A stretch of DNA of 64,000 nucleotides, taken from the NCBI GenBank assembly GCA_031404235.1, contig JANNHF010000143.1, forward strand, positions 23,999-87,998. Reading direction: 5' to 3'. Numbering within the stretch: position 1 is the stretch's first letter; the number at the start of each line of letters is the position of its first letter. Of the stretch, positions 13,111 to 28,313 are shown piece after piece. This DNA comes from Chloroflexota bacterium (GTDB taxonomy: Bacteria; Chloroflexota; Limnocylindria; P2-11E). The position numbers and the translations under genes are program-made. The notes beneath the pieces are model-generated. The model worked only from the letters and a program-made list of their open reading frames with translations. It was not told where the DNA came from and did not search any database.

Positions 13111-13383
13111 CTAGTCCAGCATCCAGGGGTTGTCCCCGCGAACGACGGACTCGACCTCGCTCGCGGAAAGATGCCCGGGCGCGAACACCGTCATGCTCTT
13201 TTCCAGCGGCAGCCGCGTGACATACGTGACCTTGCCGAAGCGGTAGCCGTGCTGGAACAGGAACGGCTTTCCCTCGATGTCGAGGCGTTGGCGGCGATCG
13301 GTGGATGTAGCGGGCACGTCGCCAGTATGGAGAACGGCCCGCCGGTCCGCCGCTGGCGCTACTCGGACAGCGGCCAGAACCAC
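13111..13383 (-). CDS. hypothetical small protein (start uncertain, probably shorter than the ORF)
   Basis: Only the C-terminal ~55 aa (LDIEGKPFLFQHGYRFGKVTYVTRLPLEKSMTVFAPGHLSASEVESVVRGDNPWMLD) look protein-like. Upstream codons overlap the small secreted peptide gene. Confidence 0.3.
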   Translation of the reverse strand: MVLAAVRVAPAADRRAVLHTGDVPATSTDRRQRLDIEGKPFLFQHGYRFGKVTYVTRLPLEKSMTVFAPGHLSASEVESVVRGDNPWMLD

Positions 13384-13538
13384 GGCAGGATCGGCGCGAT
13401 GTTGGGGAGCCCGGGGTCGTACGGCACGCTGTCGGCCCCGGCGCCGCCAGCGTTCGCAGACGCCACGTCCGCGGTCATTACGACGAGCAACGCGGCGAGA
13501 ACGGCCGCGCGCAGGAGTCGCGTGCGAAGTGGTTTCAC
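13359..13538 (-). CDS. unannotated 59-aa secreted pro-peptide (Sec signal peptide + 31-aa Trp/Pro-rich tail)
   Basis: GTG at 13538..13536 preceded by aGGGGAGAcagag (SD, 6-nt spacer). Translation MKPLRTRLLRAAVLAALLVVMTADVASA|NAGGAGADSVPYDPGLPNIAPILPWFWPLSE then TAG at 13361..13359. n/h/c regions and AxA site of a type I signal peptide; GC3 ~85 %. Not in the ORF track because it is short with a GTG start. Confidence 0.45.
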   Translation of the reverse strand: MKPLRTRLLRAAVLAALLVVMTADVASANAGGAGADSVPYDPGLPNIAPILPWFWPLSE

Positions 13539-13686: not shown

Positions 13687-14997
13687 GTGACGACTACCGA
13701 CACGCTGGCGAAACCGAACGGAGCGAATGGACTCGGGGCCCGCGTGCGTGAAGCGCGACGCGAACGAGGCATGAGTCAGGCTCAGCTCGCGGGCGACGAA
13801 CTCACCAAGGGCTTCATCAGTCAGGTCGAGTCCGGCCTCGTCCGCCCCTCCGTCCGTTCCCTTCAGATCCTCGCGGCGCGCCTTAGCAAGAGTCTCGACT
13901 ACTTCCTCGGCGACGAACCGCTTGCGACGTCGAAGCGGCTCGTTTTCCACCGTTTGGCCGCGGAGGCCGCGGCGGAGCGGCGGGATTGGACCGTCGTTCG
14001 CGACGAGGTGACGGCGGCACTTGCCGCCAAGCCCGAGAAACGCGAGCGCGCGGCGCTGCTGCGCTTCCTGGCGCAGGCGGAGATGAACACCGGTAATCGT
14101 GAGGTTGCCTTCGACCGTATCGGCGAGGCGCTGTCCCTGATCGACGCGGCCACCGACGCGGGCGAGGTCGCCCACCTTCTGCACCTGCGCGGCATCGCCT
14201 ACGGCCAGATCGGCCAGTACGTGGCCGCGGCCGAGGCGCTGGAATCGGCGCGGGATGCCATGGAGCGCCACGAGGTCAGCGACCCGCGTCTGCGCGCACG
14301 CATCCTCGTCGCGCTGGGGACGGCATACCGCCGTTTGAACCGCTCTGCCAAGGCCATGCAGACATACGTCTCGGCCCTGGATCTCGCGAGCGGGATCGAC
14401 GAGCTGCGCCTTGCGGCGCAGGGCTACATGGGCGTTGCGGTGTCGCTCTACGACGCTGGCGAGCTGGACGGCGCGATCGCGAACTATCGCCGTGCGCTCG
14501 ATCTCTTCACGCGCGTCGAGGACACGACGTTCCAACTGCAGGTGCTCCACTCGCTGTCGTCGATCCACTTCGAGATGGGCAAGACCGACGAGGCGCGCGA
14601 GCTGGCCCAGCGTGGTGCGGCCACGGCACGCATGGTCCACGACGAGGGCATGGTCGTCGTCGCGGAGCTCGTGCTCGCGCGTATCGCGCTCACCAGCGGC
14701 GATGCCGAGCAGGCGCTGAACATCGCGCGGCACGCCGAGAAGATCCTCACCGATCAGCCCGTGCAGCGCGCCGACGCGCTGCGCGTCATCGGCGCCGCAC
14801 AGGACGCCCTCAAGTCGTTCACCGCGAGCGACCGCGCTTATCGGAAGGCCATCGAGCTTCTCGTGGAGGTCGGTGACCACCCGAACCTCTCGACGTTCGC
14901 CGCTGAGTACGCGATGAAGCTTCGCGCGCGCGGCGAGACCGATCAGGCGTTCCGCTACCTCGAGCTCGCGCGAACACCGGTGACAAACCGGACCTAG
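13687..14997 (+). CDS. XRE-family HTH + TPR-repeat transcriptional regulator (RRNPP/Rgg-like architecture)
   Basis: GTG start with GGAG 5 nt upstream; N-terminus LGARVREARRERGMSQAQLAG...ISQVESGLVRPSVRSLQILAARLSKSLDYF is a Cro/C1-type HTH. The remaining ~360 aa are helical repeats with TPR-like periodicity (ALGTAYRRLNRSAKAMQTYVSALDL...). Confidence 0.8.
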   Translation: MTTTDTLAKPNGANGLGARVREARRERGMSQAQLAGDELTKGFISQVESGLVRPSVRSLQILAARLSKSLDYFLGDEPLATSKRLVFHRLAAEAAAERRDWTVVRDEVTAALAAKPEKRERAALLRFLAQAEMNTGNREVAFDRIGEALSLIDAATDAGEVAHLLHLRGIAYGQIGQYVAAAEALESARDAMERHEVSDPRLRARILVALGTAYRRLNRSAKAMQTYVSALDLASGIDELRLAAQGYMGVAVSLYDAGELDGAIANYRRALDLFTRVEDTTFQLQVLHSLSSIHFEMGKTDEARELAQRGAATARMVHDEGMVVVAELVLARIALTSGDAEQALNIARHAEKILTDQPVQRADALRVIGAAQDALKSFTASDRAYRKAIELLVEVGDHPNLSTFAAEYAMKLRARGETDQAFRYLELARTPVTNRT

Positions 14998-22076: not shown

Positions 22077-23237
22077 GTGCTCGACCGCGACGCGCCGCGG
22101 GTCGTGATCGCTCCTCAATCGTTCAAGGGCAGTGCCGACGCGGTCGCCGTCGCGCGCGCTATCGCGCGCGGCATACGGCGCGTTTGGCCTCGCGCGGAAT
22201 GCGTCGAGCTGCCGCTCGCGGATGGGGGAGAGGGGACTGCGCTTGCCCTCGTGCGTGCGACGGGCGGCGAGCTGCGGAGCGCGCGCGTGCACGATCCGCT
22301 CGGACGTGAGATCGACGCGCAGTGGGGCGTGCTCGGCGATCGCGCGACCGCCGTCCTCGAGATGGCCGCAGCGAGCGGGCTTCCGCTCCTTCGCGACGAC
22401 GAGCGCGATCCACGCATCACGTCCACGCACGGCACCGGCGAGCTCATCCTGGCCGCGGCGGCTTCGGGCGCGCAGCGCATCGTCATCGGCATCGGCGGTA
22501 GCGCGACGAACGACGGCGGCGCCGGCATGGCGCGCGCGTTCGGCTACCGCTTCTTCGACGCCGACGGCGGCGAACTGCCGGAGGGTGGCGCCGCCCTCGC
22601 GCGTCTCGCGCGCATCGAGGGGCAGACCGATCCGCGTCTCATCCGGCCTGCGATCGACGTCGCGTGCGACGTGCGCAATCCGCTGCTCGGCCCCGAGGGC
22701 GCGACCGCGGTCTACGGACCGCAGAAGGGCGCGACGCCCCAGATCCAACGCGAGCTTGAGGCGGCGCTCACGCGTTACGCGGACGTCGTCGAGGCATTCG
22801 TGGGTCGTGACGTGCGGAGCGTGCCCGGAGCGGGCGCGGCCGGTGGTCTCGGTGCGGGGCTCATCGCCTTCCTCGATGCGCGACTCGTCTCTGGAGCGTT
22901 GCTCGTCCTCGACGCCGTCGGGTTCGACAAACGGCTGGTCGGAGCGGACCTCGTGGTGACGGGCGAAGGGCGCATCGACAGGCAGAGCATGTACGGCAAG
23001 CTCACGCATGCCGTGACCGTCGCGGCGAAACGGCGCGGCATCCCGGTCGTCGCGGTGGCGGGGATGATCGGTCCGGGTCACGATGCGATGCGTGACGCCG
23101 GCGTCGAGGCGATCGAGACCCTCGCGGGCCAGTCGGAGGCCGACCGCGACGCTGCGATGCGCGACCCGCTGCCGCGCATCGAGGATGCCGCGGAGCGACT
23201 GGTCCGTGCTCGTGCAGCGGCCCGCGGAAGCCGGTAG
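22077..23237 (+). CDS. glxK: glycerate kinase (GlxK/GarK family)
   Basis: VVIAPQSFKGSADAVAVARAIARGI matches the glycerate kinase N-terminus (MKIVIAPDSFKES...); GGSATNDGGAGMARAFG is the family motif. The track start at 22017 abuts the divergent gene start (CACGTG), so a downstream GTG (22077 or 22104) is more likely; start uncertain. Confidence 0.7.
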   Translation: MLDRDAPRVVIAPQSFKGSADAVAVARAIARGIRRVWPRAECVELPLADGGEGTALALVRATGGELRSARVHDPLGREIDAQWGVLGDRATAVLEMAAASGLPLLRDDERDPRITSTHGTGELILAAAASGAQRIVIGIGGSATNDGGAGMARAFGYRFFDADGGELPEGGAALARLARIEGQTDPRLIRPAIDVACDVRNPLLGPEGATAVYGPQKGATPQIQRELEAALTRYADVVEAFVGRDVRSVPGAGAAGGLGAGLIAFLDARLVSGALLVLDAVGFDKRLVGADLVVTGEGRIDRQSMYGKLTHAVTVAAKRRGIPVVAVAGMIGPGHDAMRDAGVEAIETLAGQSEADRDAAMRDPLPRIEDAAERLVRARAAARGSR

Positions 23238-23248
23238 GGTCTAGCCCC

Positions 23249-24238
23249 ATGCTCGGCCCGCCGGTCCCCACCGATCGGACCTCCAGCCTTGAGCTCGTGC
23301 GCATCACCGAAGCGGCCGCGCTCGCGGCCGCCCACTGGATGGGCCATGGCAACAACGATCGCGCCGACGAGGCCGCGGTCGAGGCGATGCGGAAGGCGAT
23401 GGACGAGGTCGCGTTCCACGGCACCGTCGTCATCGGCGAGGGCGAGCGCGACGAGGCACCGATGCTCTACATCGGTGAGAAGGTGGGGCGTGGTGACGGT
23501 CCCGAGGTCGACATCGCGGTCGATCCGCTCGAGGGCACGAACCCCGTCGCGAAGGGACGCGCGAACGCGCTGGCGACGATCGCGGTATCCGAACCCGGCG
23601 GCCTGCTCCACGCGCCCGATACCTATATGGAGAAGCTCGTCGTCGGGAAGCCGGCTGCGGGACAGGTCGATCTCGACCGTCCGGTCGCGGAGAACCTGAA
23701 GATCATCGCGAGGTCGCTGAATCGTGACGTCGACGACCTCACGATCGTGATCCTCGACCGACCGCGCCACGAGCAGCTCGTCGCGCAGGTGCGCGCTGCC
23801 GGAGCGCGCATCAAGCTCATCGAGGACGGTGACCTCATGGCCGCGATCTCGGTGGCCGTGGCGGGCACCGGTGTGCACGCGGTCATGGGCATCGGCGGCG
23901 CGCCCGAGGGCGTTCTTGCCGCGGCCGCGCTGAGGTGCCTGCGCGCCGAGATCCTGGGGCGCCTCAAGTTCCGCAGCAACGAGGAGCGCGAGCGTGCCAA
24001 GAAGATGGGCATCGTCGACGACGGCCGCGTGTACCGCACTGAGGACCTGGCGAGCGGGCGGGACGTGCGATTCGTCGCCACGGGCGTGACCGACGGCGAC
24101 CTGCTGCAGGGAGTGCGCTTCTTCGCGGGCGGCGCTCGCACCCACTCGGTGCTCATGGACCGCCGACTCGGCAAGCTCCGCTTCATCGACACCACCCACT
24201 TCGAGGACCCAGCGAACCCACCCGTCGTCCGTCTCTAG
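23249..24238 (+). CDS. glpX: class II fructose-1,6-bisphosphatase
   Basis: 329 aa; ELVRITEAAALAAAHWMG...DIAVDPLEGT...VMGIGGAPEGV is the GlpX signature layout. Confidence 0.9.
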   Translation: MLGPPVPTDRTSSLELVRITEAAALAAAHWMGHGNNDRADEAAVEAMRKAMDEVAFHGTVVIGEGERDEAPMLYIGEKVGRGDGPEVDIAVDPLEGTNPVAKGRANALATIAVSEPGGLLHAPDTYMEKLVVGKPAAGQVDLDRPVAENLKIIARSLNRDVDDLTIVILDRPRHEQLVAQVRAAGARIKLIEDGDLMAAISVAVAGTGVHAVMGIGGAPEGVLAAAALRCLRAEILGRLKFRSNEERERAKKMGIVDDGRVYRTEDLASGRDVRFVATGVTDGDLLQGVRFFAGGARTHSVLMDRRLGKLRFIDTTHFEDPANPPVVRL

Positions 24239-24296
24239 AAACGCGCTGTCGATTTCCAGTTGACGCCGACCCCCAGGGCGCGTACCTTCTCGCGCC

Positions 24297-25616
24297 GTGC
24301 CAATGCGCGTCCGCCAGCGACGCATCGCCCCCGAATCGCCGGCCATGCGGCAACTGGGCCAGCGCCTGCGTGAAGCGCGCGTCGCAGCGGGTCTGAGCCA
24401 AGCGCAGCTTGGCGCTCCCTACTACACGCGCGCACATGTCAGCGCGATCGAGCTTGGCAAGATTCGCCCGGCGATGAAGTCCCTCGAACACTTGGCGACG
24501 AAGCTCGGGAAGCCGGTCTCGCACTTCATGGAGGACCGTCAGCTCGAAGAACAGCGAGGTGAACGAGCCGTGGCAATTGCCCGCGCGCACCAACTCACCG
24601 CCGAGGGCAAGGCGGCTGAAGCGATCGAGATTCTCCTTCCGTTGCTCGAGGAAGAGCAGACCCGGTTGGAGCGCGCCGGCGTCCTCCGCACGCTAGGCCG
24701 GGCGTACTGGGAGGCGGGTCTAGGCGCGAAATCCGCGACAGCGTTGCAGGAAGCGCTCGACATCTACCAGGCAAACGGAACCGTCGAGCTGATCGCTCGC
24801 GCGCGCGCCCAGCTCGGTATGGCGCTGCACCTGTTGATGAGCTACGCCGAGGCTGCCGAGCATTTCAGCGAGGCGCTTCGTGCGATGGCGCGTGGTGAAC
24901 TGCGCGACCCTGTGCTCAAAGTCCATGTGCTCCACAACCTCGGTCTCACCTTCTATCAACGGAATGAGTTCTCGCTCGCGCTCGAACACTTCGAACGCGC
25001 GGAGACTGAGGGCGCGGACATCGGCGATCCGAAGTGGCTCGCCTCCCTATTCGCCGCGATAGGAATGTCCTTTCATCAACTGAAGGATTACGACGCCGCC
25101 CTGGCGTACCTCGGCAAGAGCGAGGCTCTCTTCGAATCGATCCGGAACAGATCGCGGGTGGCTGAGATCCGCTTTCAGCGAGGGAGAGGCCTGTTGGCCA
25201 TCGGGCATCGCGCGAAGGGAATGGTCACGCTTCGCGAGGCCGAGCGGCTCGCTGGCGAGGCCGACAACCCTGTACTCGAGACGCGTATCGCAATGATCGC
25301 CGGACTGGCCCAGGTCGAGGGCGGTGAGGAGGCCGTCGGGACCGTGAGCCTACGAAACGCACACTCGCGCGCTGGCGAGCTCGGCGATCGCGCGCTTCGG
25401 GTCGCAACGGCAATAGCGCTCGCTCGTGCAATAAAGGAGCGGGCGCCGAGCGAGGCTGAGAAGGTGCTTCGTGAGGCTATCGAAATAATGCGAGATCGGC
25501 CGGGGCCCGAGCTCGGCGAGACGTATGCGGAGCTCAGCGACGTGCTATCAAGACGGGGGCTTGCCGAAGAGGCACTTGGCTATGCGCGTAGAGCCTTTGA
25601 ACTAGCGAAGCGTTAG
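24297..25616 (+). CDS. XRE-family HTH + TPR-repeat transcriptional regulator, paralog of 13687..14997
   Basis: LGQRLREARVAAGLSQAQLGAP...VSAIELGKIRPAMKSLEHLATKLGKPVSHFMED (HTH) then ~370 aa of TPR-like repeats. Same length class (439 vs 436 aa) and co-linear similarity to the first regulator. Confidence 0.8.
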   Translation: MPMRVRQRRIAPESPAMRQLGQRLREARVAAGLSQAQLGAPYYTRAHVSAIELGKIRPAMKSLEHLATKLGKPVSHFMEDRQLEEQRGERAVAIARAHQLTAEGKAAEAIEILLPLLEEEQTRLERAGVLRTLGRAYWEAGLGAKSATALQEALDIYQANGTVELIARARAQLGMALHLLMSYAEAAEHFSEALRAMARGELRDPVLKVHVLHNLGLTFYQRNEFSLALEHFERAETEGADIGDPKWLASLFAAIGMSFHQLKDYDAALAYLGKSEALFESIRNRSRVAEIRFQRGRGLLAIGHRAKGMVTLREAERLAGEADNPVLETRIAMIAGLAQVEGGEEAVGTVSLRNAHSRAGELGDRALRVATAIALARAIKERAPSEAEKVLREAIEIMRDRPGPELGETYAELSDVLSRRGLAEEALGYARRAFELAKR

Positions 25617-25625
25617 GGAGGTCGC

Positions 25626-25706
25626 ATGAAGATCTTGGCCTTGCTGTTCGCCGCGACGAGTGGAGCGCGCTCACTCATCGAGGTGCTCAAGCCGATCCTG
25701 GGCTAG
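25626..25706 (+). CDS. unannotated 26-aa hydrophobic peptide ORF immediately downstream of the XRE-TPR regulator (candidate signalling pro-peptide)
   Basis: taGGGAGGtcgcATG: perfect SD overlapping the regulator stop, ATG at 25626. Translation MKILALLFAATSGARSLIEVLKPILG then TAG; GC3 ~88 %. Fills the whole 86-nt gap between the regulator and convergent folD, with the two stop codons overlapping. Confidence 0.4.
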   Translation: MKILALLFAATSGARSLIEVLKPILG

Positions 25707-26551
25707 GCGCCGGCGCTCGGCGTCTCCGCCGCGGTCAGCACATTGCGCATTAGCAGGGCGGTGGTCACCGCCCCAACGCCACCAGGCACGGGGCTGAGTG
25801 CTCCCGCGACCTTCGCGACGGAGTCGGCATCCGTGTCGCCAACGGTCCCCGCCGGCGTCACATTGATTCCCGCGTCGATGACGGTGGCGCCGGGCGCGAC
25901 CATGTCGCCGGTGAGGAACCCGGCGCGACCGACAGCGACGACGACGACCGAGGCGCGGCGCGTGAGCGCGGCGACGTCAGCTGTGCGCTGGTGCGCGATG
26001 GTCACTGTCGCGTCTTCGTTGAGGAGCAAGGCCGCGGCTGGGCGACCGACCACGGTGCTGCGGCCGACGACGACGACATAGGCGCCGGCGAGGCGGACGT
26101 GGTGGAACTTGAGGAGCTCGACGATCGCCTCCGCGGTCGAGGGTACGAACCGCGGACGGCCGTCGAAGAGCAACCCAACGTTCTGCGGGTTCAGTCCTTC
26201 GACGTCCTTGTACGGTGCGATGTGATCGACGAGATGGCCCTCGTCGAGCTTTCCGGGCAGTGGGGTGAGGAGCAGAACACCGTGGATCGCGGCGTCGCGG
26301 CTCGCTCGGTCGAGCTCAGACATGACCGCCCCCTCGGCTGCCTCGCGGGGCAGGGCGATATCGCGGACGGTGATACCGAGCGCGCTGCCGCTTCGCACCA
26401 GGCGCTGCAGATACGTGGTCGCTGCGGGGTCGATCCCGACCGAGACCACCGCGAGGGCGGGTTGGATGCCGCGAGCACGGAGAGCATCGGATCGTTCACG
26501 CGAGCGCGCGTTCAACCGCTCCGCGAGCGGTCGCCCGTGCAGCAGTCGCAT
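25703..26551 (-). CDS. folD: bifunctional methylene-THF dehydrogenase / methenyl-THF cyclohydrolase
   Basis: 282 aa, typical FolD (YLQRLVRSG...GKLDEGHLVDHI...VVVGRSTVVGRPAAALLL...AVGRAGF). Confidence 0.9.
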   Translation of the reverse strand: MRLLHGRPLAERLNARSRERSDALRARGIQPALAVVSVGIDPAATTYLQRLVRSGSALGITVRDIALPREAAEGAVMSELDRASRDAAIHGVLLLTPLPGKLDEGHLVDHIAPYKDVEGLNPQNVGLLFDGRPRFVPSTAEAIVELLKFHHVRLAGAYVVVVGRSTVVGRPAAALLLNEDATVTIAHQRTADVAALTRRASVVVVAVGRAGFLTGDMVAPGATVIDAGINVTPAGTVGDTDADSVAKVAGALSPVPGGVGAVTTALLMRNVLTAAETPSAGA

Positions 26552-27177
26552 CAGCGCGCGATGCGCGTCTCGACGAAATCCGTGATCCGTTTGCGCTGCG
26601 CCTCAGCGCCGTCGAGCGCGCGGTCGAGGTCCTCGGAAAGCGCCTTGACCTGAGCCGGATCCTTCACCGACGCGAGATTGATCATCACGTTCAAGGACGC
26701 CCCGCGCAGCGCCGCCTCGGCCATGAGGGCGCCAACGCCGATATCGCTCGCTGTCGTGGGCGTCGACTTCGTGATGCCGCGCTCGCAAGCATCGAGGAGC
26801 CGGCGACTGGTCTTCGCGACCTCGAGCGGGACGCGGGATGCCGCGAGCAGTGCCGACTGGATGCGTTCGGTGCGCTCCCGCTTCTCGTCGTCGTTCGTTT
26901 TCGGCAGCTTCATGGCGTCCATGACGCCGCCATATGCCGCGCTGTCGTCGTCGACCAGACGAAGGAAGTCCGCTCGCAGGTTGTCCATCTCCGCGACGTA
27001 GTCGGCGAACCAGCCGTCTTCAGACTTGCGGGCGGCGATCCGCGCGACCATCGCCGCGAGGGCAGCTCCAAGCGCGCCGGCGTAGGCCGCGGCGCTGCCT
27101 CCGCCAGGGACCGCAGCGTCGGAGGACAGGTCGTCGCTGAACGCGCGCAAGGTCCGGTCGACGAGCCGTTTGGTCAT
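26551..27177 (-). CDS. cyclodeaminase/cyclohydrolase-family protein (FtcD C-terminal domain-like, methenyl-THF cyclohydrolase)
   Basis: 208 aa, VPGGGSAAAYAGALGAALAAMV is the characteristic N-terminal motif of the formiminotransferase-cyclodeaminase domain; TGATG overlap with folD. Confidence 0.7.
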   Translation of the reverse strand: MTKRLVDRTLRAFSDDLSSDAAVPGGGSAAAYAGALGAALAAMVARIAARKSEDGWFADYVAEMDNLRADFLRLVDDDSAAYGGVMDAMKLPKTNDDEKRERTERIQSALLAASRVPLEVAKTSRRLLDACERGITKSTPTTASDIGVGALMAEAALRGASLNVMINLASVKDPAQVKALSEDLDRALDGAEAQRKRITDFVETRIAR

Positions 27178-27235
27178 GGGAACGGCGAGAGTGTACGTGT
27201 TACGCTTCGACGAAAGTTCAGACGCGATCCTTTTT

Positions 27236-27392
27236 TCATCGAGAAGAGGCTGAGGGAACGGCCCGATGACGCCTCGGCAACCGGCGGAGGCCCGCTACGG
27301 TGCCAACTCCGGCCCTGTAGAACAGGGAAAGATGAGAGAGGGTCGACCCGTAAAGGGCGACTTCTCTTGAATATGGAGAGGTCGTTTTTCAT
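27236..27392 (+). promoter_or_regulatory. SAM-I (S-box) riboswitch with SD-sequestering expression platform, leader of metF
   Basis: CAUCGAGAAGAGGCUGAGGGAACGGCCCGAUGACGCCUCGGCAACC...GGUGCCAACUCCGGCC...GAAAGAUGAGAG matches S-box core blocks. Downstream CUUCUCUU can pair either with GGAGAGG (SD, 11 nt before TTG start 27393) or with the P1 3' strand GAGAGAG; a U5 run follows. Confidence 0.8.
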
Positions 27393-28313
27393 TTGAGCAG
27401 CCTCGCAGCGCTCCTCCGGCAGGGCGAGTTCGTCGTCACCGCCGAGCTCAATCCGCCGAAGAGCGCGTCCGGTGCGGTCGTGAAGCGACGGGCCGGCGTT
27501 CTCAAGGGAAGCGTCGACGCCATAAACGTCACCGACAACAACCGCGGTGTCGCGGCGATGGCAGCGATCCCGGCGGCGTTGTTGGTCCGCGAGGCTGGCG
27601 TGGAGCCCGTCGTCCAGATCACCGGGCGCGACCGGAACCGCATCGCGCTGCAGGCCGACCTGCTCGGTGCAGCCGCCCTGGGCCTGGCCAACTTCCTGTT
27701 CATGAGCGGCGATGACCCGAAGCAGGGGAATCATCCCGACGCCGTGCATGTGAAGGACCTGGACGGTGTCGGTCTCATCAAGATGGCGGTCACGATGCGC
27801 GACGAGCACAAGTTCCTCTCCGGTGACGAGATCCGCCAGGCTCCCGAGTACTTCATCGGCGCCACCGCATCGCCGTTCACGAAACCGATGTCGGCCGACC
27901 TCGAAAAGACGGTGGAGAAGATCAATTCCGGCGCTGACTTCGTGCAAACGCAGCCGGTCTTCGATCTCGCGACGTTCAGCCAGTGGCTCGCCGAGCTCCG
28001 GCGCGTCGGTGGCGGGCGTGGGGCCGCGGTCATCGCCGGCGTTCTCGTCCTTCGTTCCGCCGACCAGGCCGAACGCTTCGCGCGCGTGCCGGGCATCGCG
28101 CTCGAGAAGGACGTTGTCGCTCGACTCAAAAAGGCGGCCGACGGAGAGCAGGAAGGTATCGCCATCGCCGTCGAGATGGTGAAGTCGCTACGCGCGCTGC
28201 CCGGAGTCCACGGCGTGCATATCTACGCGATCGAATGGCCTGAGGCCGTTCCGCTCGTCGCGGAGCGCGCAGGTCTGCTGCCACGACCGAAGGTGAAGGA
28301 GTCGAACCCATGA
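27393..28313 (+). CDS. metF: 5,10-methylenetetrahydrofolate reductase
   Basis: 306 aa, TTG start; FVVTAELNPPKS, AINVTDNNRGVAAMAAIPAALL, QPVFDLATF are MetF features. Confidence 0.85.
   Translation: MSSLAALLRQGEFVVTAELNPPKSASGAVVKRRAGVLKGSVDAINVTDNNRGVAAMAAIPAALLVREAGVEPVVQITGRDRNRIALQADLLGAAALGLANFLFMSGDDPKQGNHPDAVHVKDLDGVGLIKMAVTMRDEHKFLSGDEIRQAPEYFIGATASPFTKPMSADLEKTVEKINSGADFVQTQPVFDLATFSQWLAELRRVGGGRGAAVIAGVLVLRSADQAERFARVPGIALEKDVVARLKKAADGEQEGIAIAVEMVKSLRALPGVHGVHIYAIEWPEAVPLVAERAGLLPRPKVKESNP

Follow-up and report, generated by a model that had tools for sequence, protein, structure and literature searches.

Known receptor-peptide systems and the Limnocylindria locus

RRNPP signalling, which works through cytoplasmic receptors built of tetratricopeptide repeats (TPRs), is treated as a trait of the Bacillota, their plasmids and phages included (PMC10075063, PMC9765709, PMC12700828). 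In the literature that we searched, all descriptions of it come from Bacillota, their phages and their mobile elements, and none makes a link to Chloroflexota or Limnocylindria. Here we analyse a locus in a 64,000-nt stretch of contig JANNHF010000143.1 (positions 23,999 to 87,998, forward strand; hereafter the window, 68% GC) from the class Candidatus Limnocylindria, an uncultured lineage of Chloroflexota. A gene for a regulator with an XRE-type helix-turn-helix (HTH) and TPRs is followed there by an open reading frame (ORF) of 26 codons, which the initial annotation had taken for the gene of the regulator's pro-pheromone. The best explanation of the locus, and in our judgement a reasonably probable one, is an RRNPP-like receptor/pro-peptide pair with a pherotype-like polymorphism.

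NprR of the Bacillus cereus group, an RRNPP receptor, combines an HTH with about nine TPRs, and its partner NprX is processed from an internal heptapeptide. Like NprR-NprX, the locus joins an N-terminal XRE-type HTH and ~nine TPRs in a single polypeptide of ~420-440 aa, and has a pro-peptide gene immediately downstream on the same strand. It differs in its host (Chloroflexota, not Bacillota), in a peptide of unrelated sequence, and in that the conserved module here is made up of the extreme C-terminal 12 residues. A likeness of the peptide's LKPILG to the SKPDIVG of NprX, pointed out at first, proved not to be family-wide: only 5 of the 26 peptides have K at -5, and 15 have P at -4. NprR was not among the PDB phmmer matches of the regulator at E up to 1, and generic TPR proteins outscored it in fold searches. 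One homolog from JGI (P0077) carries the automatic name 'quorum sensing regulator NprR'.

PlcR and PapR, also from the B. cereus group, form discrete receptor and peptide pherotypes within a species group; PlcR has ~285 aa and five TPRs. Its HTH gave the best RRNPP sequence match in the PDB (E = 4.8e-6 over residues 18-79 of the regulator), and its peptide gene likewise lies downstream and has a C-terminal active part. PlcR pherotypes differ by point substitutions, whereas here the difference is an unalignable sensor-domain cassette. Rap proteins of Bacillus, its phages and plasmids have no HTH domain and act as phosphatases or anti-activators, and Phr is matured to pentapeptides. Likenesses to Rap-Phr are a weak TPR similarity (E = 3.9e-4 to 0.02), a peptide gene that lies downstream and often overlaps, and orphan receptors without a peptide, which are common there (PMC9765709).

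The Rgg-SHP systems of streptococci share with the locus a short, hydrophobic, unannotated peptide of ~22-35 aa beside an XRE-HTH regulator, again with a C-terminal active part; SHP peptides escape recognition by SignalP and leave the cell through PptAB (PMC10075063). The comparison with Rgg/SHP drawn in the initial annotation found no support in the regulator: no Rgg-family model matched the regulator in Pfam (E up to 0.01) or NCBIfam (E up to 0.1), its repeats match canonical TPR models, and the likeness to SHP is one of length and hydropathy. The locus also recalls comQXPA of Bacillus subtilis and agr of staphylococci, where conserved flanks likewise enclose a hypervariable signal and sensor segment, and where alleles are interspersed on the species tree and occur together in one habitat. 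Modified peptides and membrane histidine kinases are at work there; what varies here is a cytoplasmic TPR domain, joined to an HTH that does not vary.

The domain assignment of the regulator is based on Pfam matches to HTH_31 (5e-7) and HTH_3 (9e-7) and on three TPR matches that all exceed the curated cut-offs (TPR_12, 8.7e-18; TPR_1, 1.5e-11; TPR_2, 2.2e-9). An AlphaFold2 model built from 60 sequences (predicted local distance difference test, pLDDT, 87; predicted template modelling score 0.74) has the HTH followed by 17 TPR-type helices in an all-helical TPR superhelix. The start codon kept among orthologs is the GTG at 24297 (context GTGCC[C/A]A[C/T]G), whereas the public gene call P0001 (437 aa) begins at ATG 24303. 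At E up to 1e-10 the regulator has 335 homologs, and the taxon names given for these are all Chloroflexota/Limnocylindria, bar one partial Saccharimonadales record. A second HTH/TPR regulator lies in the window itself (13687-14997, +; 28% identity, E = 3e-18), which agrees with the paralogy of two modules that had been proposed as far as the regulators go; the small ORF beside the second regulator (13359-13538, -) is divergent and unrelated. That ORF of 59 aa, MKPLRTRLLRAAVLAALLVVMTADVASANAGG…PWFWPLSE, has a signal-peptide-like N-terminus and may encode the partner peptide of the second regulator.

By coverage, the nearest named regulator family in NCBIfam is that of the TPR-like NsdA proteins of Actinomycetota (NF053720), for which we know of no peptide partner. 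Scores are far below the cut-off of 75 bits: 19 bits for the window's regulator (type A), 30 bits for the alternative allele described below (type B, covering 16-402 of 432 profile positions) and 51 bits for the second regulator of the window. Architecture and logic of the locus are familiar; new are its phylum, its unrelated peptides and, at a core-genome site, an allelic cassette at the level of domains. We suggest that the locus may work like an RRNPP system; membership by descent is not claimed, and the sequence links (PlcR HTH, Rap TPR) are weak.

A conserved peptide gene behind the regulator

As read in the initial annotation, the regulator stop (TAG, 25614-25616) overlaps a GGGAGG Shine-Dalgarno (SD) sequence, and the ATG at 25626 follows four nucleotides on, 9 nt from the stop. 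Equally confirmed was that the ORF fills the 86-nt interval up to the convergent folD (25617-25702) and that the two stops overlap as CTAG. Its G+C content at third codon positions (GC3), given as ~88%, was measured at 0.885, with 0.82-0.88 in the flanking genes. The public Logan contig that carries this sequence has no gene call for the small ORF, and an exact look-up of ten family peptides in 15 billion proteins found two of them called as genes, both nameless.

Contigs of genomes and metagenomes yielded 100 related loci, and in essentially all of them the gene order glyK-glpX-regulator, convergent with folD-fchA, is kept. Loci whose regulators are like that of the window (41-90% identical) were designated type A, and those with downstream sequence were counted. 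The small ORF is present behind the regulator in every one of these (26 distinct peptides, 32 loci), and no type-A locus missing it was found. It starts between -1 and +21 nt relative to the first base of the regulator stop and is preceded by GGAGG, GGGAG or AGGAG. The expectation, set out with the initial annotation, that orthologs are always followed by a short ORF with an SD sequence is thereby borne out for the ORF and fails for the SD sequence at two loci, L036 and L037.

At 68% GC an open frame by itself says little; several measures, however, distinguish the peptide frame from the others. In the peptide frame, all 26 distinct type-A loci have an ORF complete across the interval, and no other frame has one in more than 3 of them. 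The ratio of nonsynonymous to synonymous polymorphism (pN/pS) is 0.51 in the peptide frame versus 0.68-1.43 in the other five (11 close homologs, 26 codons, no indels). Of 25 distinct loci, 22 retain the 2-nt overlap with the folD stop (CTAG or CTAA), which fits selection against altering either C-terminus. Across the 26 variants the peptides measure 26-36 aa, and the differences in length are confined to the hydrophobic N-terminus, while the tail has a constant 12 residues of the form R-x-x-x-[D/E]-x-x-x-P-x-x-G. Counted from the C-terminus, 20 of the 26 peptides have R at -12, 25 have D or E at -8, 15 have P at -4, 13 have P at -5 and 18 have G at -1. A K or R occurs within residues 2-6 of 25 of the 26 peptides, and the uncharged run mostly comprises 11-12 aa (range 7-19), with small residues usually ahead of the conserved R by a heuristic reading. 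Since frame, SD sequence, start, constant tail and codon-level tests all indicate that the small ORF is a selected coding sequence, we conclude from these comparisons that the peptide gene is real and conserved.

At one locus (L004, 5200-5407; protein P0043, 472 aa) the regulator stop has been lost and regulator and peptide are fused in frame. The fusion keeps an internal AAGGAGG and ATG, and the related locus L003 has separate genes. Readthrough of the stop codon from regulator into peptide, which share a frame in the window, was considered and rejected, as the offsets vary among loci (12, 13, 14, 17, 21 and -1). A coding constraint from folD as the cause of peptide conservation was likewise rejected, the overlap being limited to the stop codons.

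Rfam searches over 23000-27500 and four distant loci gave no match in the peptide region and, elsewhere, just an S-adenosylmethionine (SAM) riboswitch (RF00162, 83 bits; 27233-27338, +). It lies just past folD-fchA, ahead of a methylenetetrahydrofolate reductase gene (27393-28313, +), and the arrangement recurs in L068, L092 and L100. A consensus scan detected no terminator or terminator-like structure between the convergent genes (25617-25710). With overlapping stops and no terminator between the two units, the regulator-peptide and folD transcripts must overlap as antisense.

Exchange of sensor domain and peptide between two alleles

Many loci encode GlpX and FchA proteins 92-95% identical to those of the window and yet carry a different regulator of 451-453 aa (type B, 448-454 aa overall). 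This aligns with the window's regulator over residues 1-284 only, at ~41% identity; the first ~70 residues are almost identical and the TPR part is barely alignable. In DNA, homology between the window and the B loci L055, L070, L008 and L013 (84-87%) stops at 24536/24537 and resumes at 25702. One breakpoint thus falls within about codons 80-91 of the regulator, the other at the stop of the peptide gene. Type-A loci align with the window continuously through the whole locus, and the flanks of A- and B-carrying genomes are 84-99.9% identical. The same breakpoints separate L040 (A) from L063 (B), with flanks 98.96% and 99.88% identical, L038 (A) from L014 (B), which are 99.89% identical up to the junction, and, within one metagenome, L022 (A) from L058 (B), whose flanks share 92% identity.

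In a glpX tree of 32 loci, the A and B types are intermingled. Within a single metagenome-assembled genome, contig L007 ends in the B allele and contig L006 begins inside the A allele, and further contigs start 37-67 codons into the regulator (L002, L026, L035, L041, L046-L048); contig breaks at the junction would be the expected product of a de Bruijn-graph bubble. Divergence is fastest in the peptide, slower in the TPR domain and slowest in the flanks. The GC3 of the regulator (0.73 for 24297-25613) is lower than that of its neighbours (glpX 0.88, glyK 0.82, folD 0.82, fchA 0.85), which would fit a separate evolutionary history of the cassette.

With breakpoints at the HTH/TPR junction and at the end of the peptide gene, what is exchanged is the sensor domain together with the peptide, and the DNA-binding domain remains the same. 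Such cassette exchange is the strongest computational evidence so far that TPR domain and peptide are a matched pair. On the genomes compared, the peptide gene is coupled to the TPR domain both physically and evolutionarily, and an A/B polymorphism with fixed breakpoints exists. One type-B regulator (L063, 1259-1489) has a TAC-to-TAA nonsense change at codon 77 relative to the near-identical L040, with the remaining frame and the B peptide intact, and is either a pseudogene or a sequencing error.

The B peptides (MKRILVLLIALCAISAEAIASLDAMSGSPPGCC; MKRLVLVLALLAVFMSTGSFAAADEDERDWGGPPPICC; MFQLKFALLIIAVGAVRLLLGPAGPPICC) start in overlap with the regulator stop (GTGA) and have 29-42 aa. By inspection they consist of a classical signal peptide with n-, h- and c-regions and an AxA-type site, and a soluble acidic tail. 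In one example the canonical signal peptide MKRLVLVLALLAVFMSTGSFAAA is followed by the hydrophilic tail DEDERDWGGPPPICC, on the pattern MKR…AEA then …GSPPGCC. These signal peptides argue that peptides at this site are exported. The intact B peptides (for example those of L055 2788-2889, L014, L015, L018, L056 and L063) all end in PP-x-CC (such as GSPPGCC, GPPPICC and QPPTCC). The pair of cysteines at their C-terminus hints at a disulfide, at metal binding or at a modification, although the neighbouring genes include none for a modifying enzyme.

In the window's own clade, six distinct loci have an intact B peptide and others an in-frame shortened one (MKRLLIGCC, MKGGSPPGCC and a 17-aa form); L059 and L075 have a frameshift in it, and more than 10 loci have lost it by deletion, all of these with an intact regulator. 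Loss of the ORF beside an intact regulator, which the initial annotation had named as evidence against the pairing, is thus absent from type-A loci and does occur in the B allele, whose peptide is often truncated or deleted. A distant lineage of B-like regulators has no peptide, and there the stops of regulator and folD lie directly side by side or are separated by a GC-rich element of ~170 nt (L068 3851-4030, L100 3851-4020, L084-L086, L088, L094, L098). This element, found in both orientations and unmatched in Rfam, has terminal inverted repeats of ~17 nt (CCGCGGGT…GGGG); it may be an insertion like a miniature inverted-repeat transposable element, or a structured RNA. Peptide-less receptors are common in Firmicute RRNPP systems and have been discussed as possible 'eavesdroppers' (PMC9765709).

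HTH and upstream element are common to alleles A and B. Of 74 distinct upstream regions from both alleles, 72-73 carry the near-invariant motif TGTCGATT-N5-TTGAC, placed 37-40 nt ahead of the start codon, and in some lineages (L032) the element is a perfect palindrome, TGTCAAT-N5-ATTGACA. The -10-like hexamer of the window is replaced in relatives by TAGCGT or TATCGT. A strict sigma-70 consensus scan with an E. coli-type threshold did not detect the conserved -35/-10-like boxes, which fall below it. Judging from the conserved boxes, the regulator mRNA is probably leaderless or nearly so, and the upstream element is a putative operator overlapping the -35 box. In the distant B-like lineage (L064, L078, L083-L085, L091, L093, L095-L100) an extra 440-570 nt lies between glpX and regulator, which by eye resembles a minus-strand receiver-domain ORF; the conserved motif is kept downstream of the insert.

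Features of the regulator-peptide locus (positions in the window; strand. where none applies)
Feature	Position	Strand	Remarks
Conserved upstream element TGTCGATTTCCAGTTGACG, candidate operator	24247..24265	+	overlaps -35-like TTGACG (24260-24265)
-10-like hexamer TACCTT	24283..24288	+	17 nt past TTGACG, 8 nt ahead of GTG; position conserved
Regulator coding sequence, 439 aa	24297..25616	+	GTG start; N-terminal XRE-type HTH, then ~8.5 TPR repeats
Allele-shared part of regulator (basic N-terminal arm and HTH, ~residues 1-80)	24297..24537	+	nucleotide homology with B loci 84-87%
Allelic cassette: TPR sensor domain (residues ~81-439) and whole peptide gene	24538..25701	+	no nucleotide similarity to B loci
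Shine-Dalgarno GGGAGG	25616..25621	+	overlaps regulator stop; 4 nt ahead of ATG
Small ORF, 26 aa, candidate pro-peptide MKILALLFAATSGARSLIEVLKPILG	25626..25706	+	conserved in 26 distinct variants, 32 loci
Signal-like N-terminal segment MKILALLFAATSGA	25626..25667	+	K2, uncharged run of 12 residues, S/A at -3/-1 before R15; heuristic
Conserved 12-residue C-terminal module RSLIEVLKPILG, candidate mature peptide or precursor	25668..25703	+	C-terminus-anchored counts
CTAG	25703..25706	.	overlapping stops of peptide gene (+) and folD (-); right-hand cassette edge
folD	25703..26551	-	convergent flank, outside module; Pfam THF_DHG_CYH_C 1e-54

Interpretation of the pair and its alternatives

In the mechanism that we propose, regulator and peptide gene would be co-transcribed from the conserved promoter with its candidate operator TGTCGATT-N5-TTGAC, probably as a leaderless mRNA, and the peptide would be translationally coupled to the cytoplasmic XRE-HTH/TPR transcription factor as its cognate 26-aa pro-peptide. 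The basic and hydrophobic N-terminus would steer the peptide into or through the membrane, and the C-terminal 12-residue module RSLIEVLKPILG, or a shorter product, would be released outside the cell, accumulate, re-enter the cell and bind the TPR domain. Binding would alter the activity of the regulator at its own promoter and at further targets. Specificity would be seated in the TPR and peptide cassette, of which at least two ancient, unalignable alleles share one DNA-binding domain and one chromosomal site, and A and B would behave as non-cross-reacting pherotypes. The pairing of a regulator with a cognate peptide gene, as first proposed, is strongly supported by conservation and by co-segregation with the TPR domain; export and processing of the peptide, its re-import, TPR binding, autoregulation and density dependence we infer.

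Compared with the five-criteria signature of RRNPP systems (PMC10075063), the locus agrees in four respects. The pro-peptides (26 aa in the window, 26-36 aa in type A, 29-42 aa in B) are within 10-100 aa, the receptors (439 aa for A, 448-454 aa for B) within 250-500 aa, TPRs are present, and the distance between the neighbours (9 nt in the window; -1 to +21 nt from the first stop base in orthologs) lies within -60 to +400 bp. For the fifth, an export signal of the Sec/signal peptidase I or SHP/PptAB type, the indications are heuristic: an early K or R in 25 of 26 type-A peptides, and B peptides that look like classical signal peptides. Peptide loss with an intact receptor and fast divergence of the peptide are also patterns that match those described for RRNPP systems.

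Several observations weigh against a receptor/pro-peptide pair of this kind. A Sec signal peptide would normally have a longer hydrophobic run than the 11-12 aa of the type-A peptides, and RRNPP-specific models did not match the regulator in Pfam (E up to 0.01) or NCBIfam (E up to 0.1). As far as the genomes tell, the losses show the peptide to be dispensable to the regulator in many B genomes, and it is absent from the whole distant B-like lineage. AlphaFold2 left the peptide part of the natural fusion P0043 as an isolated, undocked helix at an uninformative pLDDT of ~41. Among ten large ORFs of the window, Pfam detected no oligopeptide permease (Opp-type binding proteins), and the 64-kb window holds no further copy of the upstream element besides that at the regulator's own promoter, so that no regulon can be proposed.

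Among the alternatives, the one that we take most seriously, and still regard as unlikely, makes the peptide a non-exported partner: a small membrane or cytoplasmic protein that binds the TPR domain inside the cell and tethers or antagonises the regulator, with no signalling between cells. The type-A peptide is hydrophobic or amphipathic throughout and its uncharged run is short, tight translational coupling would lead to roughly stoichiometric co-production, a natural in-frame fusion exists (L004/P0043), and any direct contact between TPR domain and peptide would explain the co-inheritance of the cassette equally well. The B peptides, with their full signal peptide, AxA-type site and acidic soluble tail, speak for export instead. 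By the positive-inside rule, moreover, the N-terminal K/R would place the most conserved part of the peptide, its C-terminus, outside and away from the cytoplasmic TPR domain; frequent loss of the peptide beside an intact receptor is easier to understand if the peptide is a signal that can be shared outside the cell than if it is a subunit that the regulator must have, and the fused peptide was left undocked by AlphaFold2.

The signal-peptide-like N-termini, the rapid divergence of the peptide and the unusual conserved PPxCC end of the B peptides could belong to a secreted effector (bacteriocin-like, metal-binding, or like a ribosomally synthesised and post-translationally modified peptide), whose expression alone the regulator would control, the peptide not being its ligand. 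We consider this improbable, given that modification, immunity and transport genes are absent nearby, where the flanks are housekeeping genes (glyK, glpX, folD, fchA), and that an effector leaves unexplained why the breakpoint falls at the exact HTH/TPR junction and why the TPR domain always moves with the peptide and the DNA-binding domain does not. Least credible by far is that there is no gene here, and that a frame is open by chance in GC-rich DNA or the interval is a non-coding 3' element common to the convergent transcripts. Stop codons are indeed rare at 68% GC, the transcripts must overlap where no terminator separates the convergent genes, and a pN/pS of 0.51 is merely moderate. This reading is nevertheless already contradicted by the comparative data: frame, start, SD sequence and C-terminal motif are kept over 41-90% regulator identity despite different codons, each of the five remaining frames is closed in 23 or more of the 26 loci, Rfam has no match, and the sequence belongs to the cassette of the regulator and not to the folD side.

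An RRNPP-like receptor/pro-peptide pair with two pherotypes can be tested without cultivation: exact candidate ligands can be synthesised, the two receptor alleles, which exclude each other, are natural controls of specificity, and a candidate operator of 19 bp is available. The cassette swap, in which TPR domain and peptide are exchangeable on a constant HTH, would be an unusually explicit natural case of specificity replaced with the regulon untouched. We see about an even chance that Limnocylindria run true peptide quorum sensing with an HTH-TPR receptor, a trans-species, two-pherotype balanced polymorphism at a core-genome site and frequent signal-null eavesdroppers; this would be RRNPP-type signalling outside the Bacillota, by ancient common descent or by convergence. 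If true, peptide signalling through cytoplasmic TPR receptors would extend to a second phylum, in a never-cultured lineage that is abundant in soils and lakes.

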